A stretch of 8,412 nucleotides of DNA, from the IMG/VR virus record IMGVR_UViG_2690316148_000008. The stretch is one strand, 5' to 3'. Positions 419 through 8,412 of this stretch are shown piece after piece. The notes beneath the pieces were generated by a model. It saw only the letters and a list, made by a program, of their open reading frames with translations, searched no databases and was not told the DNA's origin. This stretch comes from a virus. Taxonomy: Duplodnaviria > Heunggongvirae > Uroviricota > Caudoviricetes. Position numbers and translations under genes: made by a program. Position 1 is the first letter of the stretch; the number at the start of each line of letters is the position of its first letter.

Positions 419-754
419 ATGAAGTGGATTGTGATTGATACAGTTATCCAGCCATCATGCGGAATATCTTTTTCAGTCATATGGAGTAAAATAAAATTAA
501 TAATCTGGTATCAATCGGATGCTTTCTTACCTCCTGAAAGTATATTTACACTGACTCACACAGGCATCATGCTCAATAACAAAGTGCTACCTGTAACCAT
601 TTACAACGTAGTACCATTCAATAAAACATTCTGGAATTTAATCAAAAACAGCCAGGAATGCCCTACAAATACAGATAACGTATTGAATGAATGCTTTAAT
701 AACCGTTGCACTCTGCAAATATGTCCTTATGGACTAAAACAACAAAGTCCATAA
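419..754 (+). CDS. Hypothetical 111-aa protein in a low-GC island; five Cys, three in the C-terminal 30 residues; no obvious signal peptide; no family recognised
   Basis: Open frame of 111 codons in very AT-rich DNA, where stop codons are frequent by chance; AAGGA Shine-Dalgarno 6 nt upstream; perfect 9-bp hairpin 35 nt downstream; convergent with the phage late operon. Confidence 0.5.
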
Positions 755-788
755 GGAGTTTACTCACATCTGACAAAATCAATATAAA

Positions 789-810
789 CAGCCCCTCCGG
801 AGAGGGGCTG
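789..810. terminator. Perfect 9-bp stem / 4-nt loop hairpin (cagcccctc-cgga-gaggggctg); on the minus strand it is followed by a U-rich tract, on the plus strand it follows the 111-aa ORF
   Basis: Inverted repeat read directly; complement of 781-788 gives UUUAUAUU after the stem on the minus strand. Possibly a bidirectional terminator between convergent units. Confidence 0.5.
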
Positions 811-1005
811 GAGAGTGGCGCTATGTGCCATTGCATGGTGCCGGGTGCCTCCCGGTGAATTCAGTACCAGCACCTGAATCCGCGATTATCCCATATACCT
901 ACTCGCTGATTGCCCCTCCGCACAGGGGGATTCACCATGCCAGTTTCTTTTAACAAACTCCCCGCAAAACAGACAACTGTCAACCGTCTGAATTGTGAGA
1001 CATTT

Positions 1006-1045: not shown

Positions 1046-1122
1046 TGGCGCGTTGTACTGGATTCGAACCAGTGACCGATTGCTTAGAAGGCAATTGCTC
1101 TGTCCGGCTGAGCTAACAACGC
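1046..1122 (-). tRNA. argO: tRNA-Arg (anticodon UCU), 77 nt, encoded CCA
   Basis: Manual cloverleaf: acceptor GCGTTGT/ACAACGC, D-stem GCTC/GAGC, anticodon stem ATTGC/GCAAT with loop CTTCTAA, T-arm ACTGG-TTCGAAT-CCAGT, discriminator G, CCA. Symbol follows the ileZ-argN-argO arrangement recalled from lambdoid/Stx phages. Confidence 0.85.
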
Positions 1123-1135
1123 ATGATGCAGATAA

Positions 1136-1212
1136 TGGACCGCCATCGGGGACTTGAACCCCGCGCAGCCAGCTTCGAAGGCTGGCGCTCTTTCCTGATG
1201 AGCTAATGGCGG
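1136..1212 (-). tRNA. argN: tRNA-Arg (anticodon UCG), 77 nt, encoded CCA
   Basis: Manual cloverleaf: acceptor CCGCCAT/ATGGCGG (unusual C1-G72), D-stem GCTC/GAGC, anticodon stem CCAGC/GCTGG with loop CTTCGAA, T-arm CGGGG-TTCAAGT-CCCCG. Exact 5' end is uncertain by 1 nt. Confidence 0.75.
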
Positions 1213-1219
1213 TATGTGA

Positions 1220-1295
1220 TGGTGGCCCTTGCTGGATTTGAACCAGCGACCTGGCGATTATGAGTCGCTCGCTCTCACCACTGAGCTAAAGGGCC
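1220..1295 (-). tRNA. ileZ: tRNA-Ile2-like (anticodon CAU, presumably lysidine-modified to read AUA; Met cannot be excluded from sequence alone), 76 nt
   Basis: Manual cloverleaf: acceptor GGCCCTT/AAGGGCC, D-arm GCTC-AGTGGTGA-GAGC, anticodon loop CTCATAA, T-arm GCTGG-TTCAAAT-CCAGC, discriminator A, CCA; overall resembles my recollection of E. coli ileX. Confidence 0.8.
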
Positions 1296-1335: not shown

Positions 1336-2394
1336 TCATCCGTTCTGGCTGACTAAATCCTGTACTTCCCGAACCGTCTGCTCAAAACGTTCAGTCTCCA
1401 GCTCAACGCCAATTGCACGACGCCCGAGCGCCAGTGCCGCTTTCACTGTCGAACCCAACCCCATGAAAAAATCTGCAATCAGGTCACCCGGACGACTGCT
1501 AGCGCTGATTATCTGCTGCAGCATTTCTGCCGGTTTTTCGCACGGATGTTTCCCGGGATAGAACTGCACCGGTTTATGCGTCCACACATCGGTATACGGC
1601 ACCTGCACCGTCACGCCAAAATACCGCCGCAGATGTTTATATTCACTCAGCAGCTCCGCATACTGCCGGTTCAGTGAGGTATACGTATCCACCAGCTGGT
1701 GGTGGAGCTTTTCCAGTTCACCACGCCGATGCTTCTCTTCTGCCACCCGGGCAAACAGCGCCTGTAATTTCAGATAATCGCTTTCATTCGGCAACTGCCA
1801 CTGACCGGCACTGAACCAGTGCGACACCATGTTTTTCTTTCCTGTGGCATCTGCAATCTGTTTTGCCGTTATCCCCAGGGCAGCTCGCGCATCACGAAAG
1901 TAAGAAATCAGCGGGGCCATCACATGCTGTTTCAGTGCACTGCCCTTCGCCGCATACCCGGCATCTTTCGGACGATACGGCCCCTGATAATGTTCCGCGA
2001 ACAGAATGCGCTCTGTGGCGGGGAAATACGCCCGCAGGCTTTCCTTGTTGCATCCGTTCCAGCGTCCGGACGGCTTCGCCCAGATAATATGGTTCAGCAC
2101 ACTGAAGCGTTCACGCATCATGATTTCGATATCAGATGCCAGGCGATGACCACAGAACAGGTAAAGACTTCCGGCAGGTTTCAGCACCCGCCAGAACTGC
2201 GCCAGACACTGGTCCAGCCACTTCAGGTAATCATCGTCGCCCTTCCACTGGTTATCCCAGCCCTCAGGCTTCACTTTAAAGTACGGCGGGTCCGTGACTA
2301 TCAGGTCAACAGAATTTTCGGGTAACGACCGGATAAATTCCAGGCAGTCGGCGTTGATTAACTCACAACTGGATATTTTTACAGTATTAAGCAT
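1336..2394 (-). CDS. Orphan DNA methyltransferase, beta-class N6-adenine/N4-cytosine type (motif IV DPPY near the N-terminus, motif I FxGxG near the C-terminus)
   Basis: 352-aa ORF; VTDPPY early and FFMGLGST late is the motif order of beta-class amino-MTases (N6_N4_Mtase family); no restriction endonuclease partner is visible in the window. Confidence 0.85.
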   Translation of the reverse strand: MLNTVKISSCELINADCLEFIRSLPENSVDLIVTDPPYFKVKPEGWDNQWKGDDDYLKWLDQCLAQFWRVLKPAGSLYLFCGHRLASDIEIMMRERFSVLNHIIWAKPSGRWNGCNKESLRAYFPATERILFAEHYQGPYRPKDAGYAAKGSALKQHVMAPLISYFRDARAALGITAKQIADATGKKNMVSHWFSAGQWQLPNESDYLKLQALFARVAEEKHRRGELEKLHHQLVDTYTSLNRQYAELLSEYKHLRRYFGVTVQVPYTDVWTHKPVQFYPGKHPCEKPAEMLQQIISASSRPGDLIADFFMGLGSTVKAALALGRRAIGVELETERFEQTVREVQDLVSQNG

Positions 2395-2530: not shown

Positions 2531-2558
2531 AAATAAAAAAGCCTTCACTGCGGAAGGC
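2531..2558 (-). terminator. Rho-independent terminator (stem gccttc/gaaggc, loop actgcg, then UUUUUUAUUU on the minus strand)
   Basis: Hairpin 2541-2558 and A-run 2531-2540 on plus; the stop codon of the 65-aa ORF (2545-2547) lies inside the stem. Confidence 0.6.
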
Positions 2559-2742
2559 GTCTGTAACAACCGAACTGATAGTCTGCCAGACCCGCCATAA
2601 CCAGCTGGGTCAGTATTAACTGGCAGCGTTCGCGTGAAAGGTAAGTATTCTGCGCTATCTCCCCGACTGTCGCCGGTTCGGTAACGCTTAATTCATTAAA
2701 CACCACTCTGGCGGTTTCTGTCATATCCTGCTGTTTTAGCAT
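2545..2742 (-). CDS. Small (65 aa) putative helix-turn-helix DNA-binding protein
   Basis: AAGGA Shine-Dalgarno 6 nt upstream of the ATG; HTH-like segment TVGEIAQNTYLSRERCQLILTQL; sits between the late promoter/terminator and the methyltransferase. The terminator overlapping its 3' end keeps the coding call uncertain. Confidence 0.45.
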   Translation of the reverse strand: MLKQQDMTETARVVFNELSVTEPATVGEIAQNTYLSRERCQLILTQLVMAGLADYQFGCYRRLPQ

Positions 2743-2860: not shown

Positions 2861-2886
2861 ATAAAAAACCCGCTCGGCGGCGGGTT
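2861..2886 (-). terminator. Candidate tR'-like rho-independent terminator about 40-65 nt downstream of the pR'-like start
   Basis: Minus strand reads AACCCGC-CGCCGA-GCGGGUU followed by UUUUAU; 7-bp stem read directly. Confidence 0.55.
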
Positions 2887-2918
2887 GTAGAAACTCTTCT
2901 AACGTCAGGCATAAAACG

Positions 2919-2961
2919 CCCATCGTTATGACGAATTTACCACAGATTCCGGAAAAATCAA
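2919..2961 (-). promoter_or_regulatory. pR'-like Q-dependent late promoter: -35 TTGATT (2956-2961), 16-nt spacer, -10 TAAATT (2934-2939), then AACGATGGG (2927-2919) matching the lambda pR' sigma-dependent pause element as I recall it
   Basis: Hexamers and pause-like element read on the minus strand immediately downstream of the Q stop codon (2967); arrangement parallels lambda pR'. Confidence 0.6.
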
Positions 2962-2966
2962 CCTTG

Positions 2967-3623
2967 TTACCTAGTTACCTTTTTTAACTGCCGCTCAGCC
3001 CATGCTTCTTCAATATCAAACCGGGTCACCAGCGCATCATAAAATTTCTTAACTGTTTTTTCCCATGACGCGCGTGTTATCTGGTTTGTCACCTCGCATA
3101 TAGCATTAAATGCCTCCGTTGATGGTAGTCTTTCATAGCCACGACCACCACAACGCTGGCAGTCTCTGATAACAGGCATACCACGTTTTACCGACTCTTC
3201 ACGATGAATGGCGACACCACGCCCACGGCAATCCTTACAGGCGGTGGAAACCTCACCCTTTCCGCCACACTCCGGACAGGCAACTTTTACCACCTCTCTG
3301 ACTTTTTTCCATTCTTCCCAGTAAGACGGATACACACCTTTCGTACACTTTGCCCATACCGGCGGCTTACCATCCGGATACTGGACCTTGTTTGTAAAAA
3401 CTACGCTTTCAATAAATTTTTCCCCATAGCAACAAGGGCACTGCTTTTTACTCGCTGCGCTGCGGGCATAATCCTCAAAAGCGTACGAAGCCATAATGCG
3501 CATCACTACCGGTTTTATTTCTGCCGGAAGTTTTCTCAACGCCGCCACACGATCGCACCGACTGAGTGCATAATCTGCCAGTAATTCTGTTGCCCGCGCC
3601 CTGTCATTCATACTGATGCCCAT
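2967..3623 (-). CDS. Q: Antitermination protein Q, lambda-Q family, copy 1: carries the true C-terminus; the frame stays open upstream to the N at 3650, so it is 5'-truncated at the junction
   Basis: 218-aa ORF with CPCC...CPECGG...CKDCRGRG...CQRCGGRG zinc-ribbon motifs and a C-terminus (YDALV...VTR) resembling lambda Q from memory; followed by a pR'-like promoter. Confidence 0.75.
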   Translation of the reverse strand: MGISMNDRARATELLADYALSRCDRVAALRKLPAEIKPVVMRIMASYAFEDYARSAASKKQCPCCYGEKFIESVVFTNKVQYPDGKPPVWAKCTKGVYPSYWEEWKKVREVVKVACPECGGKGEVSTACKDCRGRGVAIHREESVKRGMPVIRDCQRCGGRGYERLPSTEAFNAICEVTNQITRASWEKTVKKFYDALVTRFDIEEAWAERQLKKVTR

Positions 3624-4257
3624 TTTCCCCAGGAACGCAGAAAACCCCANAATTTCTTAACTGTTTTTTCCCATGACGCGCGTGTTATCTGGTTTGTCAC
3701 CTCGCATATAGCATTAAATGCCTCCGTTGATGGTAGTCTTTCATAGCCACGACCACCACAACGCTGGCAGTCTCTGATAACAGGCATACCACGTTTTACC
3801 GACTCTTCACGATGAATGGCGACACCACGCCCACGGCAATCCTTACAGGCGGTGGAAACCTCACCCTTTCCGCCACACTCCGGACAGGCAACTTTTACCA
3901 CCTCCCTGACTTTTTTCCATTCTTCCCAGTAAGACGGATACACACCTTTCGTACACTTTGCCCATACCGGCGGCTTACCATCCGGATACTGGATCTTGTT
4001 TGTAAAAACCTCGCTTTCAATAAATTTTTTTCCGTGACAGCAGGGGCACTGTTTTTTGCTCGCCGCGCTACGGGCATAATCTTCAAACGCATACGAAGCC
4101 ATAATACGCATCACTGCCGGTTTTATTTCTGCCGGGAGTTTTCTTAACGCCGCCACGCGATCACACCGACTGAGTGCATATTCTGTCAGCAATTCTGTTG
4201 CCCGCTCTCTGTCATTCATACTAATGCCCATTTTCCCAAGGAACGCAGAAACCCCCA
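3043..4257. repeat. Two diverged direct copies of a ~607-bp Q segment (3043-3649 and 3651-4257) joined at a single N (3650)
   Basis: Manual alignment: the two units are near-identical over roughly the first 300 bp (about 1 difference seen) and clearly more divergent over the rest, with substitutions and 1-nt indels. Confidence 0.85.
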
Positions 4258-5076: not shown

Positions 5077-5143
5077 NNNNNNNNNNNNNNNNNNNNNNNN
5101 NNNNNNNNNNNNNNNNNNNNNNNNNNNNNNNNNNNNNNNNNNN
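5077..5143. other. Assembly gap (67 N)
   Basis: Run of n characters; separates the 5' UTR of the 85-aa ORF from a truncated second rusA copy. Confidence 0.95.
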
Positions 5144-7191: not shown

Positions 7192-7347
7192 TTACTCCTC
7201 AGGTTCGTAAGCTGTGAAGACAGCGACCTCCGTCTGGCCGGTTCGAATTCGTACCTCGCAGAGGTCTTTCCTCGTTACCAGTGCCGTCACTATGACGGTT
7301 AAACAGATGACGATCAGGGCGATTAACATCGCCTTTTGCTGCTTCAT
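7192..7347 (-). CDS. hokD: Hok/Gef-family membrane toxin (51 aa), HokD/RelF-like; the open frame extends in-frame upstream to an ATG at 7404 (70 aa), which may be a mok-like initiation region
   Basis: MKQQKAMLIALIVICLTVIVTALVTRKDLCEVRIRTGQTEVAVFTAYEPEE matches my recollection of E. coli HokD and the Hok consensus (CLT...TRK.LCE.R); AAGGAG SD 9 nt upstream of the ATG at 7347. Confidence 0.85.
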   Translation of the reverse strand: MKQQKAMLIALIVICLTVIVTALVTRKDLCEVRIRTGQTEVAVFTAYEPEE

Positions 7348-7516
7348 AGCCTGCTTCTCCTTGCCTTTCGGCACGTAAGAGGCTAACCTAGATTTGCCGT
7401 TCATAGATTGAGCCTCAGATTAATGTTAAGCGTCTTGCCGGACGCGTAATGTTAACTGGGGCTTTTCTCTATCTGCCTTTTGGTGTTCATGCCTGAGACA
7501 GATAGCCTCAAGCACC

Positions 7517-8157: not shown

Positions 8158-8412
8158 TTAACCCGCAGTGCTTTCAACTGATGAGGGGAACAAAATCTTT
8201 TCATCAAACCCTGCATTCATATCATGAACAGCAACACACCAATCCATCGACNNNNNNNNNNNNNNNNNNNTCGACGAACGATTATCAAGAGCCTCCATGA
8301 TTTCATCCATGCGGCGTAGGTCATACAGGTAAATGCTTTTATCGCCAATGGTGTAAAAGCCAATTTTTTTCGGTGATGGATGAGGTGTACTGGCAATAGC
8401 GGACACTACCAT
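8158..8412 (-). CDS. Hypothetical protein (84 codons), start ATG at the window edge (may extend beyond); interrupted by a 19-N gap at 8252-8270
   Basis: Open frame MVVSAIASTPHPSPKKIGFYTIGDKSIYLYDLRRMDEIMEALDNRSS...; stop TAA at 8158-8160 overlaps the SD of the next ORF; the first 31 nt are repeated inverted at the left window edge. Confidence 0.4.
   Translation of the reverse strand: MVVSAIASTPHPSPKKIGFYTIGDKSIYLYDLRRMDEIMEALDNRSSXXXXXXXSMDWCVAVHDMNAGFDEKILFPSSVESTAG
8382..8412. repeat. Right arm of 31-bp terminal inverted repeat (partner 1-31)
   Basis: Exact reverse complement of bases 1-31. Confidence 0.9.

Follow-up and report, generated by a model that had tools for sequence, protein, structure and literature searches.

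A probable Q-lambda-type late-gene control cassette with a short predicted leader in a lambdoid prophage

Introduction

[quoted passage not shown] The pause of RNA polymerase at +16/+17 is set by the GC-rich discriminator together with the downstream sequence, and the role of the GGG has been described (PMC5001585). The Q-binding element (QBE) of lambda lies between the -35 and -10 hexamers (PMC4914094), and the N-terminal segment of lambda Q forms a nozzle at the RNA exit channel (PMC9388147). The Q-lambda family (PF03589) is distinct from the Q21 (PF06530) and Q82 (PF06323) families (PMC9388147), and the pause of phage 82 is found further downstream, at +25 (PMC5001585).

[quoted passage not shown] This late RNA begins at the first A of AACGATGGA, and the end of t late lies 59 nt downstream. 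Phage SfV reads TTGCAT-17-TAAGAT-6-AACGATGGG, and the ydfT (quuQ) region of the Qin prophage has the same layout; the elements of the two, TTGCAT/TTTGCA-17-TAAGAT/TAAAAT-6-AACGATGGG, are followed by leaders of 62-65 nt. The cassette past ydfT/quuQ in K-12 Qin lies on the minus strand at about 1,642,420 to 1,642,360 and bears no annotation, and literature searches on the late promoter of Qin/quuQ and on a 5' hairpin of the lambda 6S RNA yielded no account of either. In a study of pR' regions in STEC, the 933W-type site alone was recognised (PMC6266700).

Short terminated transcripts made from a constitutive promoter directly past a Q-like antiterminator gene are also represented by StxS and IsrK, which accumulate in lysogens and give the downstream mRNA by read-through. 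StxS, which is made by Stx1/Stx2a phages, belongs to a 144-aa Q type and derives from a 258-nt leader that is processed to 74 nt (PMC7547250), and IsrK of Gifsy-1 is made from a promoter just past antQ (PMC4825925).

Here, an 8,412-nucleotide stretch of viral DNA (referred to below as the window) was analysed around positions 2861-2966, for which a preliminary description had proposed a lambda-type late promoter, a sigma70-dependent pause element and a nearby terminator. Our comparison indicates that the minus strand of 2861-2966 is probably a Q-lambda-type late-gene control cassette of a lambdoid prophage, with a probability of roughly 0.85. Literature searches yielded no transcript, pause or read-through data for this sequence or for other members of its subfamily.

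Results

Every element of the proposed arrangement, namely TTGATT, 16 nt, TAAATT, 6 nt and AACGATGGG after the Q stop codon, was located on the minus strand. The features of the cassette are as follows.

2969-2967, minus strand: Q stop codon TAA, read directly
2961-2956, minus strand: -35 hexamer TTGATT of the predicted pR', read directly and aligning with the position of lambda TTGACT
2955-2940, minus strand: 16-nt spacer TTTCCGGAATCTGTGG, the presumed Q-binding element, from its conservation and the parallel with lambda
2942-2941, minus strand: extended -10 TG within the spacer, the last spacer bases TGG giving the form TGn
2939-2934, minus strand: -10 hexamer TAAATT, the same as in lambda and P22
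2933-2928, minus strand: 6-nt gap CGTCAT
2927, minus strand: predicted +1, the first A of AACGATGGG, from homology with P22 and lambda
2927-2922 and 2921-2919, minus strand: pause element AACGATGGG, made up of the -10-like AACGAT and the discriminator-like GGG, from identity with lambda
2911-2912, minus strand: expected pause at +16/+17 (U17, then G18), from analogy with lambda (PMC5001585)
2902-2926, minus strand: possible 5'-terminal hairpin of the leader, from the RNAfold minimum free energy structure and complementarity across the family
2861-2886, minus strand: intrinsic terminator tR' with its stem at 2886-2867 and T-run at 2868-2863, from a terminator scan and RNAfold
2531-2558, minus strand: second intrinsic terminator (stem 2558-2541), overlapping the end of a 65-aa ORF, from a terminator scan

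The promoter TTGATT-16-TG.TAAATT begins 6 nt past the Q stop and agrees with the consensus at 8 of 12 positions, 4 of 6 in each hexamer. The threshold of the consensus promoter scan was 9 of 12 positions and pR' fell below this calling level; the case for a promoter therefore comes from homology and conservation instead of from the strength of the consensus match. When the region was aligned with lambda pR', the -10 hexamer TAAATT, the 6-nt gap and the pause element all coincided. The lambda sequence (NC_001416) reads TTGACT-17 nt-TAAATT-TGACTC-AACGATGGG, so the pause element is identical to that of lambda, as the preliminary description had stated. With the predicted start site, the element would occupy +1 to +9, 6 nt past the -10 hexamer, exactly as in lambda and as expected of a Q-lambda-type cassette. 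Only one copy of AACGATGGG was found in the 8.4-kb window, with 0.06 expected by chance on both strands, and a rough estimate of the chance of a copy within about 60 nt past a Q stop is 2e-4. Lambda and P22 have a -35-like TTGACT that stands 1 bp 5' of AACGAT; the present promoter region lacks it and reads CGTCAT in its place. In the Q-loading complex, such a TTGACT-like element upstream of AACGAT contributes to the repositioning of sigma region 4.

The rho-independent terminator that had been placed within about 65 nt was recovered as the stem 2886-2867 with its T-run. The stem AACCCGC/GCGGGTT comprises 7 GC-rich base pairs and is followed by TTTTTT in the terminator scan, and RNAfold of the 67-nt leader gave the same hairpin at nt 42-61. 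An intrinsic terminator (2886-2863) is thus present between the expected pause site and the late genes, and the predicted leader is about 65 nt long (2927 to ~2863), compared with 194 nt in lambda (tR', 6S RNA). The second terminator, reported at 2531-2558, was also detected; the scan placed it at 2558-2541 with a T-run extending towards 2531, and it is conserved in Sakai Sp9.

The gene that ends immediately before the promoter was assigned by profile and alignment searches.

2967-3623, minus strand: Q antiterminator gene, 3' part (218 codons), Pfam PF03589 at E 2e-41

The Pfam search of this ORF returned PF03589 alone, with no match to PF06530 (Q21) or PF06323 (Q82), and phmmer matched the ORF to the lambda Q chains 4mo1/7ubm at E 5e-22. 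A Q21/Q82-type cassette was accordingly ruled out, as PF03589 is the only family found and the SDPE lies at +1 to +9 as in lambda. The pause of phage 21 is at +18. The protein was aligned with the Q proteins of lambda and SfV and with the intact 273-aa homologues of E. coli TOE17 and mEp460. It shares 40% identity with lambda Q, the N-terminal segment included, and differs from it in a 66-residue insertion with an extra CxxC...CxxC (zinc-finger) motif, which lambda Q lacks. The insertion falls between residues 113 and 114 of lambda Q, where the 'body' of Q meets the zinc-ribbon 'arm', and for this reason the DNA contacts may differ from those of lambda Q.

As assembled, the window does not hold a complete Q gene. 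The intact homologue has 273 aa; the ORF beside the promoter is without the first 55 codons, and an upstream copy is without the C-terminus. The two share a direct repeat of 607 bp (3043-3649 and 3651-4257, 94.7% identical) that is joined via a single N at 3650, and a similar overlap in rusA was observed at the N-run 5077-5143. This arrangement looks like a scaffolding artefact that united two alleles or related prophages. If it were real, the prophage would have no Q of its own able to activate the present copy. An intact 273-aa Q stands beside the same cassette in TOE17 and in many viral contigs.

The conservation of the cassette was determined at three ranges. The scan of viral contigs returned only close relatives, 81 loci whose Q proteins are 89-99% identical and which represent 34 distinct versions of the cassette. 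These relatives can be used as natural mutagenesis and are too close for deep covariation analysis. In the 34 distinct versions, the -35 hexamer TTGATT was present in all, the -10 hexamer TAAATT in 32, and the spacer was nearly invariant with a single common G/C polymorphism; the 6 nt ahead of +1 (discriminator) differed freely. The pause element took the form A A [C/T/A] [G/A/T] A T G G G, with A1, A2, A5, T6 and the GGG fixed in 34 of 34 and positions 3-4 varying freely. The invariant bases are the ones that a -10-like element and a contact with sigma region 1.2 would call for. Past the pause element, +10 to +30 was nearly invariant and +31 to +45 variable. The sequence of the terminator stem changed among close variants as well as among lineages, and a GC hairpin with a T-run was always retained.

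The wider survey covered one genome per species and yielded 77 loci encoding Q-lambda relatives, of which many, at 31% identity, proved to be lambda DNA itself inside unrelated assemblies. About 45 distinct non-lambda loci from Enterobacteriaceae mostly showed a promoter, 6 nt, a AACGATGGG-like element and a GC hairpin with a T-run. With lambda excluded, the predicted leaders measured 53-67 nt in 35 of 39 scored loci, indicating that a short leader is the norm of the family and the 194-nt lambda leader the exception. The terminator had been described as lying much closer than the ~194 nt of lambda; the distance is right, but it is not unusual given the range of 53-67 nt and the 59 nt of P22.

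Across genera in which Q is only 54-60% identical, the spacer was kept as TTTCCSGAAWCTGTG. The family-wide comparison gave three conserved spacer types, each of which follows its Q clade.

Long-Q clade (this window): spacer TTTCCSGAAWCTGTG
SfV/Qin Q clade: spacer TTTTCAAAAAAYATGGA
Lambda/P22 Q clade: spacer TWTTGAATAAARTTGGG

The sequence just 5' of the promoter was not conserved family-wide, and neither were the 6-nt discriminator and the central part of the leader. Clade-specific spacers, with conservation lacking in these other segments, are the pattern expected if the spacer is the Q-binding element, and the 16-nt spacer is presumed, from this pattern, to be that of the cognate Q.

At the level of E. 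coli, the 106-nt stretch was detected at a coverage of at least 80% in 2,439 of 5,426 complete genomes (about 45%), with at most 4 copies per genome. The carriers include K-12 (Qin), O104:H4 and ST131 strains, and none of the matches listed among these complete genomes had an annotated feature over the cassette.

The leader RNA was predicted by RNAfold to fold into three parts (z -2.5): a 5' hairpin that takes in the RNA copy of the pause element, next a small hairpin rich in A/U, and lastly the terminator with its U-tail. The candidate 5' hairpin pairs nt 2-4 with 24-26 and nt 7-12 with 16-21 in the minimum free energy structure. Across the family, nt 1-8 and ~nt 20-27 were complementary in 81.5% of cells, compared with 26-58% when the two segments were slid against each other, and the mean longest run of pairs was 4.9, compared with 4.30 +/- 0.18 in shuffles. 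Seven of the 11 lineages with a differing pause hexamer had a partner segment that fits their own hexamer better than the majority hexamer, and in some lineages the 5' end and its partner have changed together (AACG/CGUU, AAUG/CAUU, AACA/UGUU). Formal covariation counts for this hairpin in the family alignment were weak, and close relatives with AACAAT, AACTAT or AATAAT retain ACGTT uncompensated. Such a 5'-terminal stem-loop could stabilise the leader and the long late mRNA or aid escape from the pause; alternatively, the invariant +10 to +30 could mark a trans-acting small RNA like StxS or IsrK.

The borders of homology coincide with the terminator. Homology of the mEp460 type extends from Q through the T-run and stops at 2861, homology of the phiP27 type starts at 2886, and modules of the phiP27, Stx2 and Sp9 types join at or just past the terminator. 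What comes after the T-run differs among close relatives, with at least six unrelated sequences at this place. These breaks at tR' and the varied downstream sequence suggest that the block Q-pR'-tR' moves as one unit.

The genes downstream of tR' in the window are as follows.

2545-2742, minus strand: 65-aa ORF, the first gene past tR' (phrog_331), from PHROGs
1336-2394, minus strand: DNA methyltransferase, Pfam PF01555 at E 8e-42 and PHROGs
1046-1295, minus strand: three tRNA genes, CAU (Ile in RefSeq homologues), Arg-UCG and Arg-UCU
419-754, strand opposite to the cassette: iraM, from NCBIfam

The 65-aa ORF had been labelled a helix-turn-helix (HTH) protein, a label that is not backed by Pfam or NCBIfam, which gave no match, or by PHROGs, which gives no HTH family either. 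Its homologue in phiP27 is named 'TrmB family transcriptional regulator' in RefSeq. Ahead of the tRNA genes, a promoter-like TTGAAG-17-TATTAT was observed at 1333-1305, within chance expectation. Beyond tR', further minus-strand terminators were located at 2558-2541, 1031-1014 and 810-789 on the path of read-through; terminator-like hairpins numbered 4 in the region, compared with 0.9 expected.

The prophage is 98-99.7% identical to a complete one at ompW in E. coli TOE17. The order of genes there is DUF968, RusA, Q (273 aa), the cassette, the 65-aa ORF, the DNA methyltransferase, tRNA-Ile/Arg/Arg, iraM on the opposite strand, a SASA-family esterase, a holin, YdfR and a lysozyme. Lysis genes (holin, YdfR, lysozyme) are thus found downstream on the same strand in TOE17, at a place that falls outside the window here. 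According to this gene order, the cassette stands exactly where a lambdoid late promoter belongs. The proposal that the downstream cargo depends on Q held in part: the same-strand block reaches the holin and lysozyme in TOE17, whereas iraM, being on the opposite strand, is outside the late transcript. The tRNA genes have the promoter-like site of their own at 1333-1305, and three more minus-strand terminators lie en route.

Among the described systems, the cassette appears closest to P22 in architecture and to the SfV/Qin and mEp460 versions in sequence. It shares with lambda a PF03589 Q, the identical TAAATT, the 6-nt gap, the identical AACGATGGG at +1 to +9, a presumed Q-binding region between -35 and -10 and an intrinsic terminator before the late genes. 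Besides the length of the leader, it differs from lambda in having a 16-nt spacer with an extended -10 TG, compared with 17 nt, and in the tRNAs, methyltransferase and small ORF inserted between tR' and the lysis genes. The lambda spacer sequence also differs, and Q specificity is presumably different here.

With P22 it has in common a lambda-family Q, the same spacing of -10, 6 nt and AACGATGG, and the same short-leader architecture. P22 is distinguished by the lambda-type spacer TTTTGAATAAAGTTGGG, a 207-aa Q, the discriminator-like triplet GGA, the sequence of its terminator and lysis genes that follow directly. The Q proteins of SfV and Qin belong to the same family, have 250 aa with a shorter insertion and are about 40% identical to the Q of the window. 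The SfV terminator AACCCGCCGCTGAGCGGGTT, annotated as a putative rho-independent terminator, is almost identical to tR' here and is followed by the same 65-aa ORF. The spacer TTTTCAAAAAATATGGA and the -35 hexamer of SfV/Qin are different from those in the window, from which a different Q specificity may be presumed.

Several small RNAs were compared as possible homologues of the leader. StxS was rejected, as it belongs to the 144-aa Q clade with a 258-nt leader. The IsrK consensus, which is not homologous to the leader, scored 16.2 bits in Rfam against a cut-off of 50, sharing the hairpin-terminator shape only, and sub-threshold Rfam matches such as Trp_leader and STnc370 were driven by the terminator hairpin only. 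HnrS is a 66-nt prophage small RNA with Sakai Sp9 among its three hosts, and its sequence is not given in the paper (PMC13502914). It was dropped as a candidate because the 176-aa Q of Sakai Sp9 is unrelated and the leader there differs; the best candidate region for HnrS in Sp9 (~17.55-17.63 kb) has no counterpart in the window. Duplex-energy scans against the ribosome-binding site of hha gave about -20 kcal/mol for every candidate and no discrimination.

Discussion

The reading of the region as a pR' promoter with a sigma70-dependent pause and a close tR' agrees with its sequence elements and their geometry, the family of Q, the selective conservation and the gene order. From homology to lambda and P22, we infer the start site, the pause, the binding of Q to the spacer and the read-through. 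In the proposed mechanism, sigma70 RNA polymerase would start constitutively at pR', at the first A of AACGATGGG (2927). Sigma region 2 would then rebind AACGAT (+1 to +6) on the non-template strand and region 1.2 would contact the GGG, and the interactions with these two elements are proposed to cause the pause at about +16/+17. Without Q, the polymerase would resume, terminate at the hairpin and U-run 2886-2863 and free a leader of about 65 nt. After induction, Q would bind the spacer element TTTCCGGAATCTGTG, engage the paused complex and make it resistant to termination. The modified polymerase could cross tR' as well as the terminators at 2558-2541, 1031-1014 and 810-789 and so transcribe the 65-aa ORF, the methyltransferase and the tRNAs, and beyond the window the read-through would reach nanS-p, the holin and the lysozyme.

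That AACGATGGG and the hexamers occur by chance, with the hairpin serving merely as the terminator of the Q transcription unit, is extremely improbable. The hexamers are indeed weak at 4 of 6 each and escaped the scan, and terminator-like hairpins are common in the region, as the excess over expectation given above indicates. However, an element expected 0.06 times stands at the lambda/P22 distance from an identical -10 hexamer, the arrangement recurs past Q-lambda homologues in many genera with flanks that cannot be aligned, and the critical bases are fixed in the 34 close variants while their neighbours vary. Quite unlikely is the view that the cassette is a relic, its elements coming down from a functional ancestor into a defective prophage copy, in which the promoter gives a terminated leader only and the disrupted Q never turns on the late region. 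It could draw on the two Q copies flanking the N at 3650, neither of full length as assembled, on the pseudogenised early genes (exonuclease and DUF968 fragments) of the TOE17 prophage and on the retention of the same cassette by the cryptic prophage Qin of K-12. Yet the N-joined repeat of two alleles resembles overlapping contig ends, that is, an artefact of scaffolding; TOE17 and many viral contigs pair an intact 273-aa Q with the cassette, all cis elements are intact here, and another prophage could supply a Q of matching specificity in trans.

The promoter-terminator unit might instead be chiefly a small-RNA gene, whose constitutive RNA of about 65 nt acts in trans during lysogeny. We regard this as unlikely, and it would add to an antitermination cassette and not replace it, since the two are compatible. 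Terminated pR' leaders can be functional, as StxS (PMC7547250) and IsrK (PMC4825925) illustrate; the present leader folds better than its shuffles, keeps +10 to +30 nearly invariant while the discriminator and +31 to +45 vary, and belongs to a module that nearly half of the complete E. coli genomes carry in up to four copies each. On the other hand, the middle of the leader is unconserved across the wider family, no Rfam family reached its gathering score within 2861-2966, StxS, with its leader of 258 nt, belongs with an unrelated type of Q, and the conservation of +10 to +30 is equally explained by the requirements of the pause site and of escape from it. A joint proposal, that the ~65-nt leader is more than a by-product and that the 273-aa Q, whose zinc-ribbon arm is doubled, has its own QBE TTTCCSGAAWCTGTG and forms a third specificity class within the family of lambda Q, is tentative and unlikely.

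Taken as a Q-lambda-type late-gene control element, the cassette is ordinary, widespread and of the textbook Q-dependent antitermination kind. It adds nothing new to the mechanism of antitermination by Q; what the comparison does show is that the 194-nt leader of lambda is atypical for its own family. The value for annotation is that of a lambda-type cassette carried by about 45% of complete E. coli genomes. The positions of start, pause and terminator tell which prophage cargo is silent in lysogens and comes on only after induction, and the same knowledge of the cassette sites shows which prophages are open to cross-activation by a given Q allele. Relatives of this Q family were also found among Stx2c-converting phages, and at least one Stx2a-converting phage encodes one too.

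Complementarity and polymorphism at the start of the leader RNA

The late-control cassette (pR' promoter, pause element and terminator tR', just after the Q antiterminator gene) was compared at the family loci L001-L085 and in its close viral relatives, with leader nucleotides numbered from 2927 (-), the first A of the pause element.

2902-2926 (-), leader 5' complementarity, family loci L001-L085

In most Q-lambda family leaders, as in those of lambda and P22, nt 1-8, transcribed from the pause element, were complementary to about nt 20-27. Both sides of this pairing were altered in match in several lineages (AAUG/CAUU, AACA/UGUU), but uncompensated changes occurred in close relatives. No description of this complementarity was found in the searchable literature.

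Leader positions +3 and +4 varied among near-identical prophages (L086-L165), giving the pause hexamers AACGAT, AATGAT, AATAAT, AACTAT, AACAAT, and AAAGAT, among which AATAAT is nearer to the -10 consensus. The TATAAT mutant of lambda (PMC4005639) suggests, by analogy, that AATAAT should strengthen pausing. The polymorphism of the hexamer may represent natural tuning of the late switch.

Distribution of the cassette

L005 15392-15510, region compared in E. coli O157:H7 Sakai prophage Sp9
L084 6361-6470 (E. coli K-12 MG1655 about 1,642,360-1,642,469) (-), Qin cassette after ydfT/quuQ

Sp9 shares the downstream module of the window (65-aa ORF, methylase, and tRNAs), being 92% identical from window position 2832 downwards. 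Its Q (176 aa) is unrelated and its promoter-leader-terminator segment is also different. Therefore, the late-control cassette has been swapped as a unit before the same cargo.

The cryptic Qin prophage retains a complete lambda-type cassette, TTTGCA-17-TAAAAT-6-AACGATGGG, with a leader of 62 nt followed by a terminator. The RefSeq record of K-12 MG1655 carries no feature at this site.

Insertion and apparent duplication of Q

2967-3623 (-), Q gene with insertion, columns about 115-182 of alignment A1 (with lambda Q, SfV Q, and 273-aa homologues)
5077-5143 and 8252-8270, N-runs

Compared with lambda Q, the protein has 66 extra residues between lambda residues 113 and 114, exactly at the body/arm junction in the alignment. 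The insertion, which is shorter in the SfV and Qin Q proteins, adds a CxxC...CxxC pair with DnaJ-like CxxCxGxG motifs. Such a doubling of the zinc-ribbon arm might be the reason why the promoter spacer differs.

The window holds two partial Q copies because a 607-bp direct repeat (3043-3649 and 3651-4257, 94.7% identical) flanks a single N at 3650; RusA is also present twice, on either side of the 67-N run 5077-5143. Both halves map onto overlapping parts of a single Q/rusA region in E. coli TOE17. Probably, a scaffolder joined contigs from two related prophages whose ends overlapped, and a real tandem duplication is disfavoured.

Other RNAs and genes

419-754 (+), iraM anti-adaptor gene
780-969 (-), STnc100 sRNA match (Rfam, 133 bits)
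1220-1295 (-), first tRNA, Met (CAU) by ARAGORN
7192-7404 (-), 70-aa ORF with hydrophobic Hok-like segment
7342-7517 (-), sok antitoxin RNA match (Rfam, 112 bits)

Since the sok match overlaps the 5' end of the 70-aa ORF with its Hok-like segment, this part of the early region looks like a hok/sok-type toxin-antitoxin locus. On the late strand, the STnc100 match follows the tRNAs and ends at a terminator (810-789), with iraM on the opposite strand; this site is the position where Stx phages carry stx. The TOE17 and Sp9 homologues of the first tRNA are annotated in RefSeq as tRNA-Ile (ileZ type), in contrast to the ARAGORN assignment here.
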